IMG/VR virus record: IMGVR_UViG_3300036945_000242
Coordinates: 64,001 to 87,798 of that record
Strand: one strand, 5' to 3'
Length of the DNA stretch: 23,798 nt
Source of the DNA: a virus
Lineage: Duplodnaviria > Heunggongvirae > Uroviricota > Caudoviricetes
Notes under the pieces: generated by a model
Seen by the model: only the letters and a program-made list of their open reading frames with translations
Told to the model about the DNA's origin: nothing
Databases searched by the model: none
Translations under genes and position numbers: made by a program
Part shown: one piece after another, positions 14,870-23,289 of the stretch
Position numbering within the stretch: position 1 is the stretch's first letter
Layout of the letters: the number at the start of each line of letters is the position of its first letter

Positions 14870-14877
14870 ATTATACC

Positions 14878-16752
14878 TTACCCTCTACTTGAGGTAAACA
14901 CGAAATTAGTTCCAGCACGATTATCACCATTAGAAGTCTTATCCGCAATGGAGTTTACCGTAATATAATTCTCATCTATTTGGGCGATTTGCGTATAAGC
15001 CGAAATTACATCGTTAGATTGAGGTTTAATTAAAAGTTCAAATTCAGTACCCGATACTAAAGCCGATATATTTAAATTGCTAATAGTTATTTTACCACTA
15101 GCGTAGTCAACAGTTCCGATTTTAGGGTTTACTACAATGTGATTTACGTATGAACCGCTAGTAGCGGAGGTTTCTGAGCTTCCGTGGTAGAATAAAACTA
15201 AATTACCCACCCCATCATCCTCTAGGTAGTGTATTCTAGAATCGCCAGTAATATAGAACCCAGTAGAAGATATTGCTTCCTCGGGTACGCCTTCAGAATA
15301 AATTGGGTTAATCAAGTTAATTTTATACTCAGCAGAAATACCGTATTTTGGTACAATAGTTCTACGTAAGTATATTGTAGTTATATTGCTAACGATGGCG
15401 GGGTCACACATATCAATCAATCTACTGAGCTTCGAGAATCTCATCATACCGTCAAACCTCTGAAGCTCATCCGTATTATACTTCTTGATAGTGTTAAGAA
15501 CTTCGGTCTGTAATTCACGGCTAGTTTTAGTGGTTTCTCTAGCGTTATAGTATATGGTAGTGTTTACTGCTATGTTGATAAACTCGGGGTCTAACAACTC
15601 AGGCGTTATAGAAACTACGCTACGAGTTTTGAGTACTGTGTTGATAATCTCGGTTTTCTGTGAAGATGTTAGGGCTAGAGCATTAGAAGGTTTAACGCAA
15701 ATAAACGTTTTACCGTAAATAGGCGGGTCATTATCCTCACCACCCCAAACCGCCACAGAAGCTATATTAGGATACTTAGAGTAAATCAAAGATTTAAAAT
15801 CATCAGGCGTTACCGCTCTATTTTGAGCCGCATATAACCTAGGAGCATTGTATTTAATACTATCCAACGTTTCAGGAGCCTCACCACCCGCTGCAGGAGA
15901 TATTAAAGTAATATTAGGGCGACTAGAAGGTAGCGTAGTAGAACCGTTAAAGGTAAAAGTTCTACAACCATTAGCTGAACCCATACGACTTACAAAATAG
16001 TCTATATGTACTACATTACCAAGCTCGACTCCAGAGGAAACTATACCATCGCCAAAATATACCTCATACAACCCATTATCAATTTCCTTAACGTAATATA
16101 CGTTGCTAGTAGATTCTAATTCTACAATAGAACTAGCGGGGTAAAACGTAGTAAATTTATCTGAGCTAGAAGCTTCTTGAACTTGTACTTTTAGCGTAGA
16201 TATATCGGCGTATTGGTTAGGGATAATAATCTTTTGACCATACGCTACCTCGTAACGGTAAGACAAAGGAGAACCTTCAACTAACTCTAAATTATTAAAT
16301 TCGTATCGAGTACCTGTGTAATTAGCGGTAACTTCTTCTAGGTTATAGAACGTATAAGTCACCCCATCAATAGTAGAAGAAAAGGGTTGTAATTTAGGTA
16401 AAGTTACGTTAGTGGGTAAGGTAGCGGTAGGGCTAATAGGAGCTATGTATAGGTTTAAATACGCTCTAGCTGACTTAGCTGAACGTGGGGAATAACCTAA
16501 CATTTTAGACAACGAAACTACGCTTTCACGCTTACTAGCTGAATCGAGAAACATCTCATTCAAAGCAAAGTTAGTGTAAAGAGCGTTATAATGGGTATTA
16601 TAGGCTAGTACGTCTATCAAAACCGATAAACCCGCACCATCAAAGTCGTAGTCAGAAAACTTACTCTGACCTCGCATATAGTCTTTAATATTGGTTTTTA
16701 TCTGGTCAAAATCCAGCTCGCTATAATTTATTCTTTTTGTGTTGCTTGCCAT
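14878..16752 (-). CDS. gp6: Baseplate wedge subunit gp6
   Basis: ELDFDQIK..IK.Y....KFSDYDFDG.GLSVLIDVLAYNTHYNA...N...NEMFLDSA, LGYSPRS, GG...E.LDSIKYNAP..YAAQNRAVT..DF and WGGEDN.PP.YG motifs. Confidence 0.96.
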   Translation of the reverse strand: MASNTKRINYSELDFDQIKTNIKDYMRGQSKFSDYDFDGAGLSVLIDVLAYNTHYNALYTNFALNEMFLDSASKRESVVSLSKMLGYSPRSAKSARAYLNLYIAPISPTATLPTNVTLPKLQPFSSTIDGVTYTFYNLEEVTANYTGTRYEFNNLELVEGSPLSYRYEVAYGQKIIIPNQYADISTLKVQVQEASSSDKFTTFYPASSIVELESTSNVYYVKEIDNGLYEVYFGDGIVSSGVELGNVVHIDYFVSRMGSANGCRTFTFNGSTTLPSSRPNITLISPAAGGEAPETLDSIKYNAPRLYAAQNRAVTPDDFKSLIYSKYPNIASVAVWGGEDNDPPIYGKTFICVKPSNALALTSSQKTEIINTVLKTRSVVSITPELLDPEFINIAVNTTIYYNARETTKTSRELQTEVLNTIKKYNTDELQRFDGMMRFSKLSRLIDMCDPAIVSNITTIYLRRTIVPKYGISAEYKINLINPIYSEGVPEEAISSTGFYITGDSRIHYLEDDGVGNLVLFYHGSSETSATSGSYVNHIVVNPKIGTVDYASGKITISNLNISALVSGTEFELLIKPQSNDVISAYTQIAQIDENYITVNSIADKTSNGDNRAGTNFVFTSSRG

Positions 16753-16754
16753 TA

Positions 16755-17147
16755 TTATCTCGTTCTATTAAGGATTACACTTACGCTTTGTACAGTGGAG
16801 GTGTTTAATATCATAAATTCTATTGTAACGTACAACGATATATCATCGGGTGATAACTTAGCGGTTACGTTGATAAGCCTTACTCTGGGCTCAAAGTTTT
16901 CAATAGTTTGAGCTACCGCTTTTTGTACCATAATTGGTAACATAGGCGTATTGAGTTCAAACATCAAACCCCGTATAGGGGATCCAATTTCGGGGTGAAA
17001 AGGGCGTTCGTAATAAGACGTTAAAATCAAATTACGTACGGAAGCCTTTATAGCTTGGTCATCGTACTTAATACTAATATCCTTTGTAACTGGGTGAGCT
17101 ATAAAGTTTAAGTCTAAGTCGGAAAAGGTTTTGGTATTTCTAGACAT
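16755..17147 (-). CDS. gp25: Baseplate wedge / sheath-initiator gp25
   Basis: FSDLDLNF..HP.T.DI....D..AIK.SVRNLILT...ERPF.PEIGS....LMFE...I.NFEPRV signature. Confidence 0.96.
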   Translation of the reverse strand: MSRNTKTFSDLDLNFIAHPVTKDISIKYDDQAIKASVRNLILTSYYERPFHPEIGSPIRGLMFELNTPMLPIMVQKAVAQTIENFEPRVRLINVTAKLSPDDISLYVTIEFMILNTSTVQSVSVILNRTR

Positions 17148-17153
17148 TATTTT

Positions 17154-17161
17154 TATTTATT
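17154..17161 (-). promoter_or_regulatory. T4-type late promoter (AATAAATA) for gp25, overlapping the sigma70 -10 box
   Basis: The minus strand reads TATAATAAATAAAAATAATG; the late box ends 6 nt before the gp25 ATG. Confidence 0.65.
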
Positions 17162-17187
17162 ATACTTTAAAAGGGGTTGTAAGTCAA
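17159..17187 (-). promoter_or_regulatory. sigma70-type promoter TTGACT-N17-TATAAT facing gp25
   Basis: Minus strand TTGACT (17187-17182), spacer TACAACCCCTTTTAAAG (17 nt), TATAAT (17164-17159). Confidence 0.8.
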
Positions 17188-17232
17188 GTAATTTATTTCG
17201 TAAAGATTAGGTAAAGTCGCTTGACTTACAAC
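17176..17232. repeat. 13-bp inverted repeat GTTGTAAGTCAAG / CTTGACTTACAAC with a 31-nt spacer
   Basis: 17176-17188 is the exact reverse complement of 17220-17232. Each arm contains a -35 box and the start of the spacer. Confidence 0.95.
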
Positions 17233-17249
17233 TAGGGTAGCGTTATAAT
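17221..17249 (+). promoter_or_regulatory. sigma70-type promoter TTGACT-N17-TATAAT facing the non-coding hairpin region and the antisense strand of gp5
   Basis: TTGACT 17221-17226, spacer TACAACTAGGGTAGCGT (17 nt), TATAAT 17244-17249. Confidence 0.8.
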
Positions 17250-17255
17250 ACCTTT

Positions 17256-17381
17256 AGGTTCTGACTTAACGTAGTTAAGGCACTGCGTAGCAGCGTGAAT
17301 AACTCTGTGTTAATAAGTAAAATAAAACTTAACAAACTTAGACTGTGAGCCTTTGGCTCACCTGCCCGTAGGGCAGTAAGT
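17256..17381 (+). ncRNA. Candidate structured non-coding transcript or DNA-hairpin element
   Basis: Lies downstream of the plus-strand promoter with no credible ORF. Four hairpins: CTTAAC-GTA-GTTAAG, CTGC-GTA-GCAG, GTGAGCC-TTT-GGCTCAC, CTGCCC-GTA-GGGCAG. Transcription is not demonstrated. Confidence 0.35.
17345..17376. terminator. Twin GC-rich hairpins just after the gp5 stop; possible (bidirectional) terminator or processing site
   Basis: Two abutting perfect stems (7 bp and 6 bp) 10-40 nt past the gp5 TAA. On the minus strand they are followed by an interrupted T-rich run, not a clean U-tract. Confidence 0.4.
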
Positions 17382-17386
17382 GTATA

Positions 17387-20302
17387 TTAAGCTTTACTAG
17401 GTCTGTATATAGCCTTGATAGATGAGTTGCTAGCTCTAGTGTAACCTTTATAGTTTATAGTTACTAAACCGCCTGTAGGGTTATTGTTTTTAGGGTCTGT
17501 ACCACCTTGGTTACCGCCAACACAATTAAACGAACCATCAGGTTTAACGTCATAAACAAAGCTTACATGGCTATACGTCCATACGATAATATCTCCTGGA
17601 AGCACCTCACCCGTAACTCTAGTTGCTTTCCACTTTTCTGGGTTATTATGAATAGCGAAAGCCGTAGGCGTAGAAACATAACGGTAATTACATTGCTTTA
17701 AAGTCCAATTTACAAATACCGCACACCAAGGTATTTGGTCGCTAGTTGCGACGGAACCTATACCTAAGTCCTTCCACATTGCTATAATATTAGGGTTACT
17801 ATTAGCCACTGTTTTATTAGACATAGCCCTTTCTGACCAATAACCTTCATTAGCTAGGTCTAATTGCTTCTTCAAGAAAGCTTGTAAGTCGGTAGCTTTA
17901 GCTCCGGATATTTGACTAGAAGTTTCTGGTACTTGCGGTTCAGGTCCTCGTACAGGGTTTATTCCTGCCGCTTCAGCTTCGGGGTTTCTATACCTATCCG
18001 GATTAGCTATAAAGTCAGCGTTAGCTCTTGCGTTCTCAGCTTCCAATTCGGGCGGTATATATACCGTTGGACTAGGTCTTACGGGTGTTTGTAATACGTC
18101 AAAACTCTGAACCACTACGCCTCTTTCTTCGGGTACGGCTGTAACGGGTAGTAACGTTTCGGCTGCGCCTCCAACATTTACATCTACCGTAGAGTTAAAG
18201 CTAGTCGTAGTCAATTCAACGCCAGCGGTTGACATATGCATTTTACCGCCAACCGTAGCGTGTATATCGCCCGCTACGCTTAAGAATAAACCCCCGCCAA
18301 TAACACACTCCACGTCACTAGCTACGCCTAAACTTAAGTCTCCGTGTATATTAGCTATACAAGAACCCCCAACATCAATATCCGCACTACCCGCAACAGA
18401 TACTTGAGCGTTGCCATCAATATTTACAGTACAAGCTCCGCCGATGTAAATAAACCCATTTCGGTCGATAATAGTATAACCATCCCCCACTATTTTATTG
18501 ACCTGAGTACCATTAGCGTCTATATCAATAAACGTTCCCGCCTTATGGGTTAAGCTTACGGTTTCATGTCCTGGAGTGTCGTCAAACATCTGTAAGTGAC
18601 CCGACTCCGACTCATAAACTTTAACGTAAGGGTACTCACCGCCCCATGGGGCTAGGGGTTGTTCCCAAGATATTTCATCTAATCCGTTAGGATACTTAAC
18701 GTTTCTAGTTCTACCTTGGTCTTTAGCAGCTAATGCGGTTTCTTTAAATACGCCTCTAGCTAGTCTATTAGTGCTAGGTTCATCCATTAAGTTTCTTAAC
18801 GGATATTTACCCATTGGGTCTTGAAATCCGACGGTGGTTACCGTTGGTCTATCTTCCGAAAGGGTAGCTTGACGTTGGGGCGATAGATATTGATTTTCGG
18901 CTTTATCCGGAACTCGCTCATCATTAGCCATAGATTTGTTAGTACTGTCTTGAATAACACCTTGACCTAAGAAGTATTCGTACATTTTATGTTTCTTAAT
19001 ATACGAATCGGCTACGGGTTTTCCTACCCTTTTTTTGGCGGCATCAAAATACGTTGGGCTATTTCTATCGCCCTTAACGTAGAGCTTAAAGAACATTACT
19101 GCTGCTAAAGCGGATTTCTCATAGTCTGTAATCAATATATCTGGATTATCCACTAATGGGATATTAAACCCTTCTTTAGCTAAGGCTTGTTGTATGTCAA
19201 AGTAACCACGCTTACCCGTTATTTGAACGAAACCCCGCCCATAATACTTACCCCCATCTCCAGGTAATTTATTACCTAATTCCTTACCCTTCGGATTATC
19301 GAAGCCGTACACGAACTCAAAAAACTCTGACCTTGGTCCATTCCAATTATGGTATTTTTTCCCTCTTACGGGGTCTTTACTATATGCGCTTCTAAACGTA
19401 GAAGTGTATTTATCAAAATCGCTATACTTACACCCCTCTTCAACTGGTTGCCACATAGACTCGCCACCACAAATACCCAAGATAGAACACTTAGCGTATT
19501 TACTGGTTATACCTAGCTTATCACACGCATCCAACAACGCTTTAATACCACGTCGCATATCTCCACGACCGCTTTTATCAATTAGTTTTTCAGGTCCTGG
19601 TTCTAGAGGAATTGCGGATTTAAGCGTTAAATCCGTCGCCTTACTGGTTTCTGGTTGAGCGGTTAGCTTAACTTCTTCATCAGTTTCTATTTTAGGTGTA
19701 ATTGTAGGCTTAGAAGTATCATTAGCGTTAAGTGGTTCCGCCCTAATACCTCCGCCCGAAGGGGCTGTAGCGGTTGTGCTTCCTCCACCAAACAACCCGC
19801 TTAATATGCTGCTGATAATACCGCCTAATCCGCCACCCAAGCCTAAACTACTCAAGAACGAAGCGAAAGCGTTTTTATACTCATCTTGACCAACTACCAC
19901 GTCCGATCCGTCTGGGTTCTTAACTGGTTCTCCGTCTGGAGTAGTAATAACCCCACCATCGGTTACTAGGTTATCGGTATCGCCAACAGCGGTTTCCGCA
20001 GCTTGGCTTCGGTGGATACCGTTAAATGTACCTAACATAATAGGTAGTTGTTGCTCGGGGTCTCTGAAGATAACCATAACCCAAGTTCCAGGAACTAACC
20101 CCACTGGAGCATTACCCACCCCGCTCATACTAGCACTGGTTATAGGCATTAGCGGTACTGCCCAAGGTAAATCTTCCGTAGGTAGAACGGACTTATCTTC
20201 CGTGTGTAAACCTACAACCCTAACCCTACATCTACCGATTTTTAAAGGATCTTCTCTATCCTCTACCACCCCAACAAAGTATGATACCGTTCCTTGATCC
20301 AT
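17387..20302 (-). CDS. gp5: Baseplate hub / cell-puncturing protein gp5 with GH19-like and CHAP-like domains (971 aa)
   Basis: OB-fold N-terminus (FVGVVEDREDPLKIGRCRVRV.G.H..LPWA), GF.DP.GKYP..NRLARG, YPY.KVYESESGH...DDTPG.E....H..GTF, and about 12 VxGxxxxx beta-helix repeats. Internal GES..EE..DG.KY.GRGF.QITG (GH19-like) and C-terminal PWCA.FVNW..SHV.FV..GGNQ (CHAP/TIGR02594-like). Confidence 0.93.
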   Translation of the reverse strand: MDQGTVSYFVGVVEDREDPLKIGRCRVRVVGLHTEDKSVLPTEDLPWAVPLMPITSASMSGVGNAPVGLVPGTWVMVIFRDPEQQLPIMLGTFNGIHRSQAAETAVGDTDNLVTDGGVITTPDGEPVKNPDGSDVVVGQDEYKNAFASFLSSLGLGGGLGGIISSILSGLFGGGSTTATAPSGGGIRAEPLNANDTSKPTITPKIETDEEVKLTAQPETSKATDLTLKSAIPLEPGPEKLIDKSGRGDMRRGIKALLDACDKLGITSKYAKCSILGICGGESMWQPVEEGCKYSDFDKYTSTFRSAYSKDPVRGKKYHNWNGPRSEFFEFVYGFDNPKGKELGNKLPGDGGKYYGRGFVQITGKRGYFDIQQALAKEGFNIPLVDNPDILITDYEKSALAAVMFFKLYVKGDRNSPTYFDAAKKRVGKPVADSYIKKHKMYEYFLGQGVIQDSTNKSMANDERVPDKAENQYLSPQRQATLSEDRPTVTTVGFQDPMGKYPLRNLMDEPSTNRLARGVFKETALAAKDQGRTRNVKYPNGLDEISWEQPLAPWGGEYPYVKVYESESGHLQMFDDTPGHETVSLTHKAGTFIDIDANGTQVNKIVGDGYTIIDRNGFIYIGGACTVNIDGNAQVSVAGSADIDVGGSCIANIHGDLSLGVASDVECVIGGGLFLSVAGDIHATVGGKMHMSTAGVELTTTSFNSTVDVNVGGAAETLLPVTAVPEERGVVVQSFDVLQTPVRPSPTVYIPPELEAENARANADFIANPDRYRNPEAEAAGINPVRGPEPQVPETSSQISGAKATDLQAFLKKQLDLANEGYWSERAMSNKTVANSNPNIIAMWKDLGIGSVATSDQIPWCAVFVNWTLKQCNYRYVSTPTAFAIHNNPEKWKATRVTGEVLPGDIIVWTYSHVSFVYDVKPDGSFNCVGGNQGGTDPKNNNPTGGLVTINYKGYTRASNSSIKAIYRPSKA

Positions 20303-22143: not shown

Positions 22144-23253
22144 TTAATACAATTCTTGGATAAGTTCTTTAGTAAGCACAGCCAATTCCATAAAGGTCAT
22201 AGTAACCTCTATTTGTGTTGGGCTTCCGTCTGGGAACGTAGAAAAAGTCCCAGCACCTGGAGTATAGTTTACGGTCATATCTGTAAGCACACAAGACGTA
22301 TGGCGGTGTAAATTAACGTTCTCTTTAGCGTTTTGGAAATACGTTATATCAAATTCGGAAGGATATATGTATAAGAAGTTATTCTCATCTTTATACTCCG
22401 GATGCATATGATATTTGAAAGCCTTAATGATATTTCTTACGTTAGAAGATTCGGCGGCATTTCTAGGTGAAAATAGGTACTTAAATGTAAATCTCCTACG
22501 ATCAACGCCCTTAAATATCTGTTCTTTCTTTGGGTTTGCGGCAAGACCGGAAGCTGCAGAAAGGGCTGCAGCGATAATAGGTGTTTTGTTTAGAGCCATA
22601 TTGGCTCCTACAGCGGGTGCGGCAGACGCTATCGAAGTAGAAATAATAGCATCCGCAGCTTGGAACGCCATAGTATCTTCTTCTTGCCAATTAACACCAT
22701 AAGATATAGAAAGCGAGTTAGGGACGTGCATAGCAATTGCGGTTCGTAAACGCTTTTGTTGTCGGTTCATACTTGCGGCTTGAGCAGCTATTAAAGCAGC
22801 TGCTCCGCCTCCTATTAACGCTCCAGTTCCGATTTTACCTAAAGCGGTCGGTCCTTTAATTACTGCCCCTGCAGCGTCTTTTTTATTCACTAAGGGTAGT
22901 CCAGCCGTCAATGCGGCAACTCCACCTGTAGCACCCCCAATCGCAGCTCCAATAACGGTAGCTTTAACTTTAGATAGGTCGGAACCCGCTATCTCACCAC
23001 GAATTCTAGGTGGTATTGCAGCGGTAACAACATTGTTATCAGTAGTGGCTAGTTTAGCTATCTTAGAATCGACCGCTACGTTAATATAGAAAACGACATA
23101 ATTACCCCCGTATATACCTTGCTTACTAAATAGATCGTTAGGGTATTGATGCTGGGTTACATTGTATTCTTTGTCTTCAAACGTTACTGGTGGTCTAGCT
23201 GGTGCGGGTACTGGCATTATGCCAACGTCGGTTTTTGGGGCTTCTGCCATCAT
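22144..23253 (-). CDS. gp48: Baseplate tail-tube cap gp48
   Basis: I.MHVP..L..SY..NW, NP..EQIFKGVD.R.F.F.Y.F.PRN..ES..V..II..FKYHMHP, YPSEFDI.Y, CVLT.M.VNY.P and DG.P..I...MTF.EL..LTKE motifs. Confidence 0.9.
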   Translation of the reverse strand: MMAEAPKTDVGIMPVPAPARPPVTFEDKEYNVTQHQYPNDLFSKQGIYGGNYVVFYINVAVDSKIAKLATTDNNVVTAAIPPRIRGEIAGSDLSKVKATVIGAAIGGATGGVAALTAGLPLVNKKDAAGAVIKGPTALGKIGTGALIGGGAAALIAAQAASMNRQQKRLRTAIAMHVPNSLSISYGVNWQEEDTMAFQAADAIISTSIASAAPAVGANMALNKTPIIAAALSAASGLAANPKKEQIFKGVDRRRFTFKYLFSPRNAAESSNVRNIIKAFKYHMHPEYKDENNFLYIYPSEFDITYFQNAKENVNLHRHTSCVLTDMTVNYTPGAGTFSTFPDGSPTQIEVTMTFMELAVLTKELIQELY

Positions 23254-23281: not shown

Positions 23282-23289
23282 TATTTATA
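23282..23289 (-). promoter_or_regulatory. Consensus T4 late promoter TATAAATA driving the gp48-gp53-hub-gp5 operon
   Basis: Plus-strand tatttata at 23282-23289 reads TATAAATA on the minus strand, about 30 nt upstream of the gp48 ATG. Confidence 0.8.

Follow-up and report, generated by a model that had tools for sequence, protein, structure and literature searches.

T4-like phages are a textbook case of timed transcription, but to our knowledge almost nothing is known of regulatory RNAs, or of the boundaries between transcription units, in their environmental branches near the pelagiphage, Methylophilales-phage and cyanophage groups. The locus considered here raises the question of what two near-consensus host-type promoters, placed back to back and reading away from each other, are doing in the space between gp5 and gp25 of a late structural cluster. 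It lies in a window of 23,798 nucleotides (the whole stretch of DNA that was analysed), which forms the last 23.8 kb of an 87.8 kb IMG/VR record that is ~55% complete, has 39% G+C and carries nearly all of its genes on the minus strand. A first-pass annotation had offered three possible roles for the pair: a regulated switch with a shared operator, a transcription-primed replication origin, or a relic of a lost mobile or early gene.

The promoter pair and its neighbours

The surrounding cluster is of the T4 baseplate type and comprises gp48, gp53, a tail protein, the gp5-like hub, gp25, gp6, gp7 and gp8, the hub consisting of an OB domain, a lysozyme-like part and a C-terminal CHAP domain. The elements of the gp5-gp25 gap and the two flanking genes are as follows, with positions counted in the window.

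16755..17147, minus strand: gp25 baseplate wedge gene, downstream of the sense promoter (PF04965, 2.6e-12; phrog_261, 1.3e-40)
17148..17386, no strand: whole non-coding cassette, ~240 bp, filling the space from the gp5 stop codon (17389..17387) to the gp25 start (17147); copy 3 of 3
17154..17161, minus strand: late-type box AATAAATA, 7/8 of TATAAATA, which overlaps the -10 box of the sense promoter and has its end 6 nt short of the gp25 ATG
17159..17187, minus strand: sense early-type promoter, with -35 box TTGACT (17187..17182), 17-nt spacer and -10 box TATAAT (17164..17159); 11/12
17188..17220, no strand: inter-promoter region of 33 bp, upstream of both -35 boxes, with TTTAC(C/G) twice on the sense strand
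17221..17249, plus strand: antisense early-type promoter, with -35 box TTGACT (17221-17226), 17-nt spacer and -10 box TATAAT (17244-17249); 11/12
17262..17282, plus strand: hairpin A, with core CTTAAC/GTTAAG, a 3-4 nt loop and two outer pairs; in 11 of 11 sequences
17283..17293, plus strand: hairpin B, CTGC-GTA-GCAG
17294..17344, plus strand: AT-rich linker, variable in length and sequence, with a mean identity of 0.57 and many indels
17345..17361, plus strand: hairpin C, GTGAGCC-TTT-GGCTCAC; identity 0.95
17362..17376, plus strand: hairpin D, CTGCCC-GTA-GGGCAG, abutting C and ending 10 nt from the gp5 stop codon
17387..20302, minus strand: gp5-like baseplate hub gene, 971 aa (PF06714, 2.2e-23; PF05257, 2.4e-07; phrog_430, 2.6e-89)

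Read in gene direction, the order is thus the gp5 stop codon, hairpins D and C, the linker, hairpins B and A, the antisense (backward) promoter, 33 bp, the sense (forward) promoter and gp25. The two sigma70 sites that the first-pass annotation had placed back to back at 17159-17249 were confirmed in coordinates and sequence: both strands carry TTGACT-N17-TATAAT, each site agrees with the consensus at 11/12 positions, and the -35 boxes are separated by 33 bp (17188-17220). Both sites also open with the 13-mer CTTGACTTACAAC, as described, and this sequence occurs exactly twice in the window (four matches when up to two mismatches are allowed, against 0.71 expected). The description of one promoter as facing gp25, and of the other as facing a non-coding hairpin region antisense to gp5, was likewise correct. 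The sense promoter has a predicted start near 17152, ~5 nt before the gp25 ATG, and the antisense promoter, with a predicted start near 17256, is aimed at the gp5 stop codon from a distance of 138-166 nt, a layout repeated in the other two copies of the cassette. The DNA upstream of both promoters is AT-rich.

A genome-wide motif search, which the earlier annotation had suggested, identified TT(G/T)ACTTACAA as a general early-promoter signature of the phage, the full form being TT(G/T)ACTTACAA-N12-TATAAT. Across the 88-kb record there are 17 sense-strand sites of the form TT(G/T)ACN-N16-18-TATAAT, against ~0.5 expected, and sites with the signature precede, among others, the tRNA cluster, the replication genes and gp55. 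On the antisense strand of the record, the extended motif is confined to the three cassette sites; three further consensus matches lie within genes and are without it. Since both members of the pair carry the early signature of the genome, both look like working host-type (early) promoters, as had been proposed. The suggestion of a shared operator did not survive the same search: the 13-bp inverted repeat is nothing more than the extended -35 consensus occurring twice, neither the other two cassette copies nor the orthologues have it in perfect form, and, as the 13-mer is the early-promoter signature of the phage, it is not a private operator.

Several other promoters and promoter-like sites were observed in the record. 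Outside the window, eight clustered tRNA genes (Arg, Met, Ser, Glu, Pro, Met, Trp and Thr; genome 28-2339, minus strand) have three early-type promoters in tandem in front of them, at genome 2506, 2718 and 2841; no tRNA was found in the window itself. The stand-alone early promoters at genome 22881, 35836 and 2506 have a canonical terminator in front of them (a GC-rich stem and a U run), with a UUCG loop in the terminators at 22881 and 35836. A 10/12 site, TTTACC-N17-TATAAT, is located on the minus strand at 14870-14898 of the window, inside the 3' end of gp6 and ending 1 nt before the gp7 ATG; it is without the extended early motif and may be either a chance match or an internal start signal.

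The late-type boxes noted in the first pass do exist, as an exact TATAAATA at 23289..23282 (minus strand) and the 7/8 version AATAAATA at 17161..17154 (minus strand), and in the genome late-type motifs show a strong sense-strand bias. The sense -10 box and the overlapping late-type box together read TATAATAAATA on the sense strand, and the sequence from the -10 box to the gp25 ATG is identical in the orthologues of relatives L040 and L183. In relatives that lack the cassette, CTAAATA or TATAAATA stands 5 nt ahead of the gp25 start codon, and the similar position of the box here, 6 nt before the ATG, indicates that gp25 keeps a late signal. At copy 3 the sense promoter is predicted to give a leader of only ~5 nt, with no Shine-Dalgarno sequence, and the use of this promoter is uncertain, in that an early promoter for gp25 may be useful or may merely have been brought along with the cassette.

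In the alignments, the inter-promoter region (17188..17220) is highly conserved in the closer relatives and has diverged in L175, L191 and L192. A palindrome, (A)ACC-N4-GGT(T), spans the predicted antisense start at 17244-17262, with arms that are kept in relatives and a centre where TTTA gives way to GTAA; a protein that switches the antisense promoter might bind here, or the palindrome may merely be a conserved initial transcribed sequence.

Copies of the cassette in the record and in relatives

A profile search of the 88-kb record with nhmmer returned exactly three copies of the cassette, at ~13.4, 48.0 and 81.2 kb, directly before the genes for primase, gp55 (the late sigma factor) and gp25, respectively. 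The gaps that hold them, of 245, 258 and 239 bp, are three of the largest intergenic gaps, and copy 3 is situated inside the late structural cluster and not at a late-to-early junction. No ORF is common to the copies according to the ORF map and the alignment, the antisense transcript included.

Two of the genes next to the copies can be described further. Upstream of copy 1 there is a 157-aa DUF7201 protein, and PHROG 451 matches both this protein (profile 16-114) and the primase downstream of the copy (129-460; L006:380-2142, genome 12288-14050); because one family spans both, the DUF7201 protein and the primase may be one gene, or may be annotated as one, in some phages. Upstream of copy 2, between UvsW and gp55, a 125-aa gene (L001:1667-2044, genome 48151-48528, minus strand) gives a sub-threshold match to the Sm-like family PF16243 (26.8 bits against a cut-off of 29.4) and is itself a member of a viral-only family. 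This gene is also present in relatives without the cassette, so that no link to an RNA is implied.

Related metagenomic phages were recovered by a degenerate scan for two facing -35 motifs and by looking up close homologues of the three downstream proteins. The scan gave ~140 matches, of which only three were true cassettes (L040, L046 and L127) and the rest chance. At the gp55 site, the cassette is present in L046, L127, L171, L174, L175 and L178, whose gp55 proteins are 72-90% identical, and absent in L180 and L182 (71% or less). At the primase site it is present in L191 (82%) and L192 (74%) and absent in L193 (66%). Conservation of the gp5-gp25 gap, which the first-pass annotation had put forward as a check, was found in L040 and L183/L184, with gp25 87% or more identical, and the cassette is absent from this site in L185-L190, with gp25 at ~70%. 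This pattern of presence and absence indicates that the cassette is a feature of a single small clade. A DNA search against cultured phages gave no match, and even the closest of these, Methylophilales phage Melnitz and pelagiphage HTVC008M, share only 38% identity in gp6. Exact scans with the own-genome versions of the conserved blocks found no match in one metagenome or among the IMG/VR contigs, collections that are perhaps without the record itself and its near copies.

The presence of such an element before gp25 is unusual, in agreement with the earlier annotation: where gp25 is ~70% identical or less, relatives show only a late-type box, and the place directly upstream is taken by a PAAR gene or another ORF. 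In L185-L190 this is a 100-aa PAAR gene directly before gp25, with a CTAAATA box 5 nt before the ATG, and in the still more distant L009-L028 there is no gap before gp25, or only a TATAAATA box. No PAAR gene was found in the 88-kb record of the phage itself. Given that the PAAR gene of the relatives is missing here, and that a gp5 with a C-terminal CHAP domain is followed by the cassette, the gp5/gp25 junction has been remodelled. The cassette came to the gp25 site later than to the other two sites and has been kept since.

The copies show concerted evolution, with paralogues within a lineage more alike than orthologues. Copy 3 of the record has an identity of 0.98 to its own copy 1 and of 0.89 to its orthologue in L040, and the copies of L040 and L046 have an identity of 1.00 to each other. 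The greater likeness within lineages implies that the copies exchange sequence. The contigs of L174, L183/L184, L191 and L192 start inside the cassette, in hairpin A or B, and such breaks in four relatives are as expected for a multi-copy repeat in short-read assembly.

On the evidence of sequence and comparison, the element is therefore a repeat that is conserved at the same sites, and these observations also bear on whether the two promoter sites are chance matches to the consensus in AT-rich DNA. Taken by number alone the sites could be so explained, as simulated windows of equal composition hold a mean of 0.84 sites at 11/12 or better, with two or more in 19% of cases; the window holds just these two, and its overall number of promoter-like sites is not enriched. 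Chance cannot, however, explain a pair that stands back to back in one of the few intergenic gaps, shares a 13-mer, occurs three times in the genome and is conserved in relatives. With the arrangement conserved in 13 sequences, and with invariant hexamers on either side of a variable spacer, this explanation is already refuted by the comparative data and its probability is negligible. The first-pass idea that the pair is left over from a mobile or early gene can also be set aside, because the element is repeated, occupies the same three sites in relatives and is under purifying and compensatory selection. For annotation, this means that a host-type promoter in a late cluster can stem from the spread of a cassette and need not be a relic, and that such an element breaks metagenomic assemblies.

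Hairpins and a predicted antisense RNA

Selection on the antisense promoter and on the adjoining hairpins was assessed from an alignment of 11 copies, comprising paralogues and orthologues, and two partial ones, i.e. 13 sequences. The TATAAT of the antisense promoter is perfect, and its spacer is 17 nt long, in all 13 sequences. Averaged over pairs, identity is 0.93 in the -35 box and 1.00 in the -10 box, compared with 0.34 in the spacer. An invariant -10 box and a fixed spacer length, together with a near-random spacer sequence, are what selection for a promoter predicts, and are not what a role of those bases in RNA structure would predict.

Hairpins A-D fold in every copy. In hairpin A, both partners have changed in two of the pairs (A-U to G-C and U-A to A-U), and hairpin B occurs in three fully paired stem variants (CTGC/GCAG, TCGC/GCGA and TTGC/GCAA) and in one intermediate whose pairing depends on a plus-strand U-G. 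Hairpin C has symmetrically lost one base pair in relatives, and hairpin D is invariant in nine of nine full-length copies. The linker of 35-50 nt between B and C is poorly conserved even in orthologues with 76-84% DNA identity in the flanking genes. The Watson-Crick compensatory changes fit either strand, and the wobble pairs are split, with one case favouring the plus strand and two or three marginal cases the sense strand. The stability of hairpins A and B is low (-1 to -7 kcal/mol), and a single sequence folds just slightly better than its shuffled versions. A three-way junction with the closing helix ACTTA/TAAGT was considered and rejected, as it is found in only ~5 of 9 copies and is absent in L040 and L175.

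No intrinsic terminator is listed on either strand in 17148-17386, and no U run directly follows hairpin C or D, the nearest U4 being 8 nt past hairpin C on the sense strand. As canonical terminators are used elsewhere in this genome, the cassette hairpins do not appear to be ordinary terminators, and it is more likely that they are structures that protect an RNA end, or that serve in processing or binding. A comparison with Rfam 15 gave no family match, the best scores (16.5 bits against a gathering threshold of 48, and 13.8 against 120) being at chance level.

By sequence and comparison, then, there is selection on both promoters and the stems are conserved, and from this we infer transcription itself, the end of the RNA and its role. 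On balance, the promoter pair probably forms the core of a conserved boundary cassette whose copies evolve in concert and which would make an antisense non-coding RNA. In this model, host sigma70 polymerase would read both promoters straight after infection. The forward promoter would provide an early start for primase at copy 1, for gp55 at copy 2 and for gp25 at copy 3, where the late-type box is also kept. The backward promoter would start a non-coding RNA near 17256 that contains A, B, the linker, C and D and extends for ~125 nt to 17376, with A and B at its 5' end and C and D ~100-120 nt further on. Without a canonical terminator, the primary antisense transcript probably continues into antisense gp5, where it would then be stopped, for example by Rho, which is favoured by the C-rich and G-poor plus strand in antisense gp5; the discrete small RNA is accordingly a matter of inference, and would arise by trimming back to the stable C/D hairpins.

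The most likely role of such an RNA would be in cis, by analogy with the OOP RNA of phage lambda, through pairing with read-through RNA and through the opposition of its polymerase to incoming polymerases, so that the cassette would act as an insulator of the downstream early unit from the upstream unit. Against an insulator, it has no obvious rationale inside a late baseplate cluster. Lambda OOP is a 77-nt, single-copy non-coding RNA with a constitutive host-type promoter and a proper terminator; it starts just past the 3' end of the neighbouring gene, close to the origin, overlaps the coding end of cII and pairs in cis with the convergent mRNA. The cassette resembles it in having a host-type promoter just past the 3' end of a gene, firing back at that gene. 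It differs in that its conserved part ends ~10 nt short of the upstream stop codon, in its want of a canonical terminator and in its three copies.

[quoted passage not shown] The cassette is in any case a compact and testable object, with two strong promoters, four covariation-supported stems and natural variants from at least six phage genotypes. Were the antisense RNA real, it would amount to a new phage RNA family and to an insulator-like element that has spread by recombination into a late structural operon, and were the cassette to prime replication, it would supply sequence-defined origins for this group.

Alternative explanations for the cassette

The cassette could instead be an RNA element acting elsewhere or a replication origin, and both possibilities were weighed against the boundary cassette. 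A small RNA acting in trans, or one serving as a protein binder or sponge, would use the hairpins as a scaffold and the linker or loops to contact host or phage targets, and this would suit structured 5' and 3' domains around a single-stranded middle, a strong early promoter and three paralogues with differing middles. However, the middle is not conserved between orthologues, complementary matches of 11-15 nt in the 88-kb record (~55% of the genome) occur at near-chance frequency in both orientations with no convincing site among them, and the lack of an Rfam match also counts against it, which makes a role in trans quite improbable. A transcription-primed origin would have the backward, and perhaps also the forward, early transcript form a persistent R-loop in the linker and prime the leading strand. 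T4 oriF and oriG consist of a MotA-dependent middle promoter and an AT-rich unwinding element, and the T4 origins share no sequence motif, whereas oriE depends on an early promoter, lies in the gene 5 region and has 12-nt iterons and the repEA/repEB reading frames (PMC3016281). A strong promoter followed by an AT-rich linker without sequence conservation fits the minimal oriF/oriG design (PMC3016281); as in T4, there are several such stretches per genome, one of them adjoining the primase gene, and copy 3 adjoins gene 5 as oriE does. Unlike the T4 origins, the cassette copies share sequence and conserved hairpins and contain neither iterons nor a reading frame. The AT-rich stretch begins ~40 nt past the start, behind two conserved hairpins, and an origin leaves the four compensated stems and the invariant C and D unexplained. 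The skew check that had been recommended revealed no GC or AT shift at any of the three copies, which is weak evidence if the phage replicates largely by recombination, as is probable. On balance, it is also quite improbable that the cassettes are origins.

The remaining alternative is a terminator-promoter module like the PeSL (promoter-early stem-loop) cassettes of T4-type phages, in which only the sense parts would matter: D/C and B/A would act on the upstream mRNA as stabilisers or attenuators, transcription would start afresh at the forward promoter, and the backward RNA would be a functionless by-product or a block to polymerase. PeSLs combine stem-loops with sigma70 early promoters, are found at module junctions and undergo recombination (PMC2839356; PMC4122927); the cassette copies, judging by their concerted evolution, recombine too, copy 3 stands where gene content differs from that of relatives, which have the PAAR gene there, and the stems fit the sense strand equally well. 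The resemblance extends to a short, repeated intergenic module in T4-like myoviruses that runs from stop to start codon and has a sigma70 early promoter, here with AT-rich DNA upstream, and stem-loops. PeSLs are, however, short, with one promoter, a stem-loop that overlaps or touches it and efficient termination, they number ~50 per genome in hyperplastic regions before ORFans, and the papers that describe them mention no backward promoter (PMC2839356; PMC4122927). The cassette, by contrast, is ~240 bp long, with two divergent promoters and four separate hairpins at 35-190 bp from the sense promoter, none with a U run on either strand, and its three copies in 88 kb precede core genes at positions that are stable in relatives. 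Possible signs of modular exchange are the concerted evolution and the altered gp5/gp25 junction, with no exchange event directly reconstructed. Because three of the four PeSL features are lacking (a single promoter with an overlapping terminator stem-loop, tens of copies, and hyperplastic regions), the cassette is not classed in the PeSL family. A purely sense-strand function is also at odds with the backward promoter being the best conserved of the pair, with a conserved initial transcribed region, and with hairpins A and B that are too weak to terminate. The stand-alone modules of the same genome (22881 and 35836) place the same early signature directly after the end of an upstream gene, but they have one canonical terminator, with UUCG loop and U run, which is not used in the cassette, and no backward promoter. 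A PeSL-like module is considered unlikely on these grounds. The classic PeSL layout, with the -35 box enclosed in a stem, is seen elsewhere in the record, at genome 43480.
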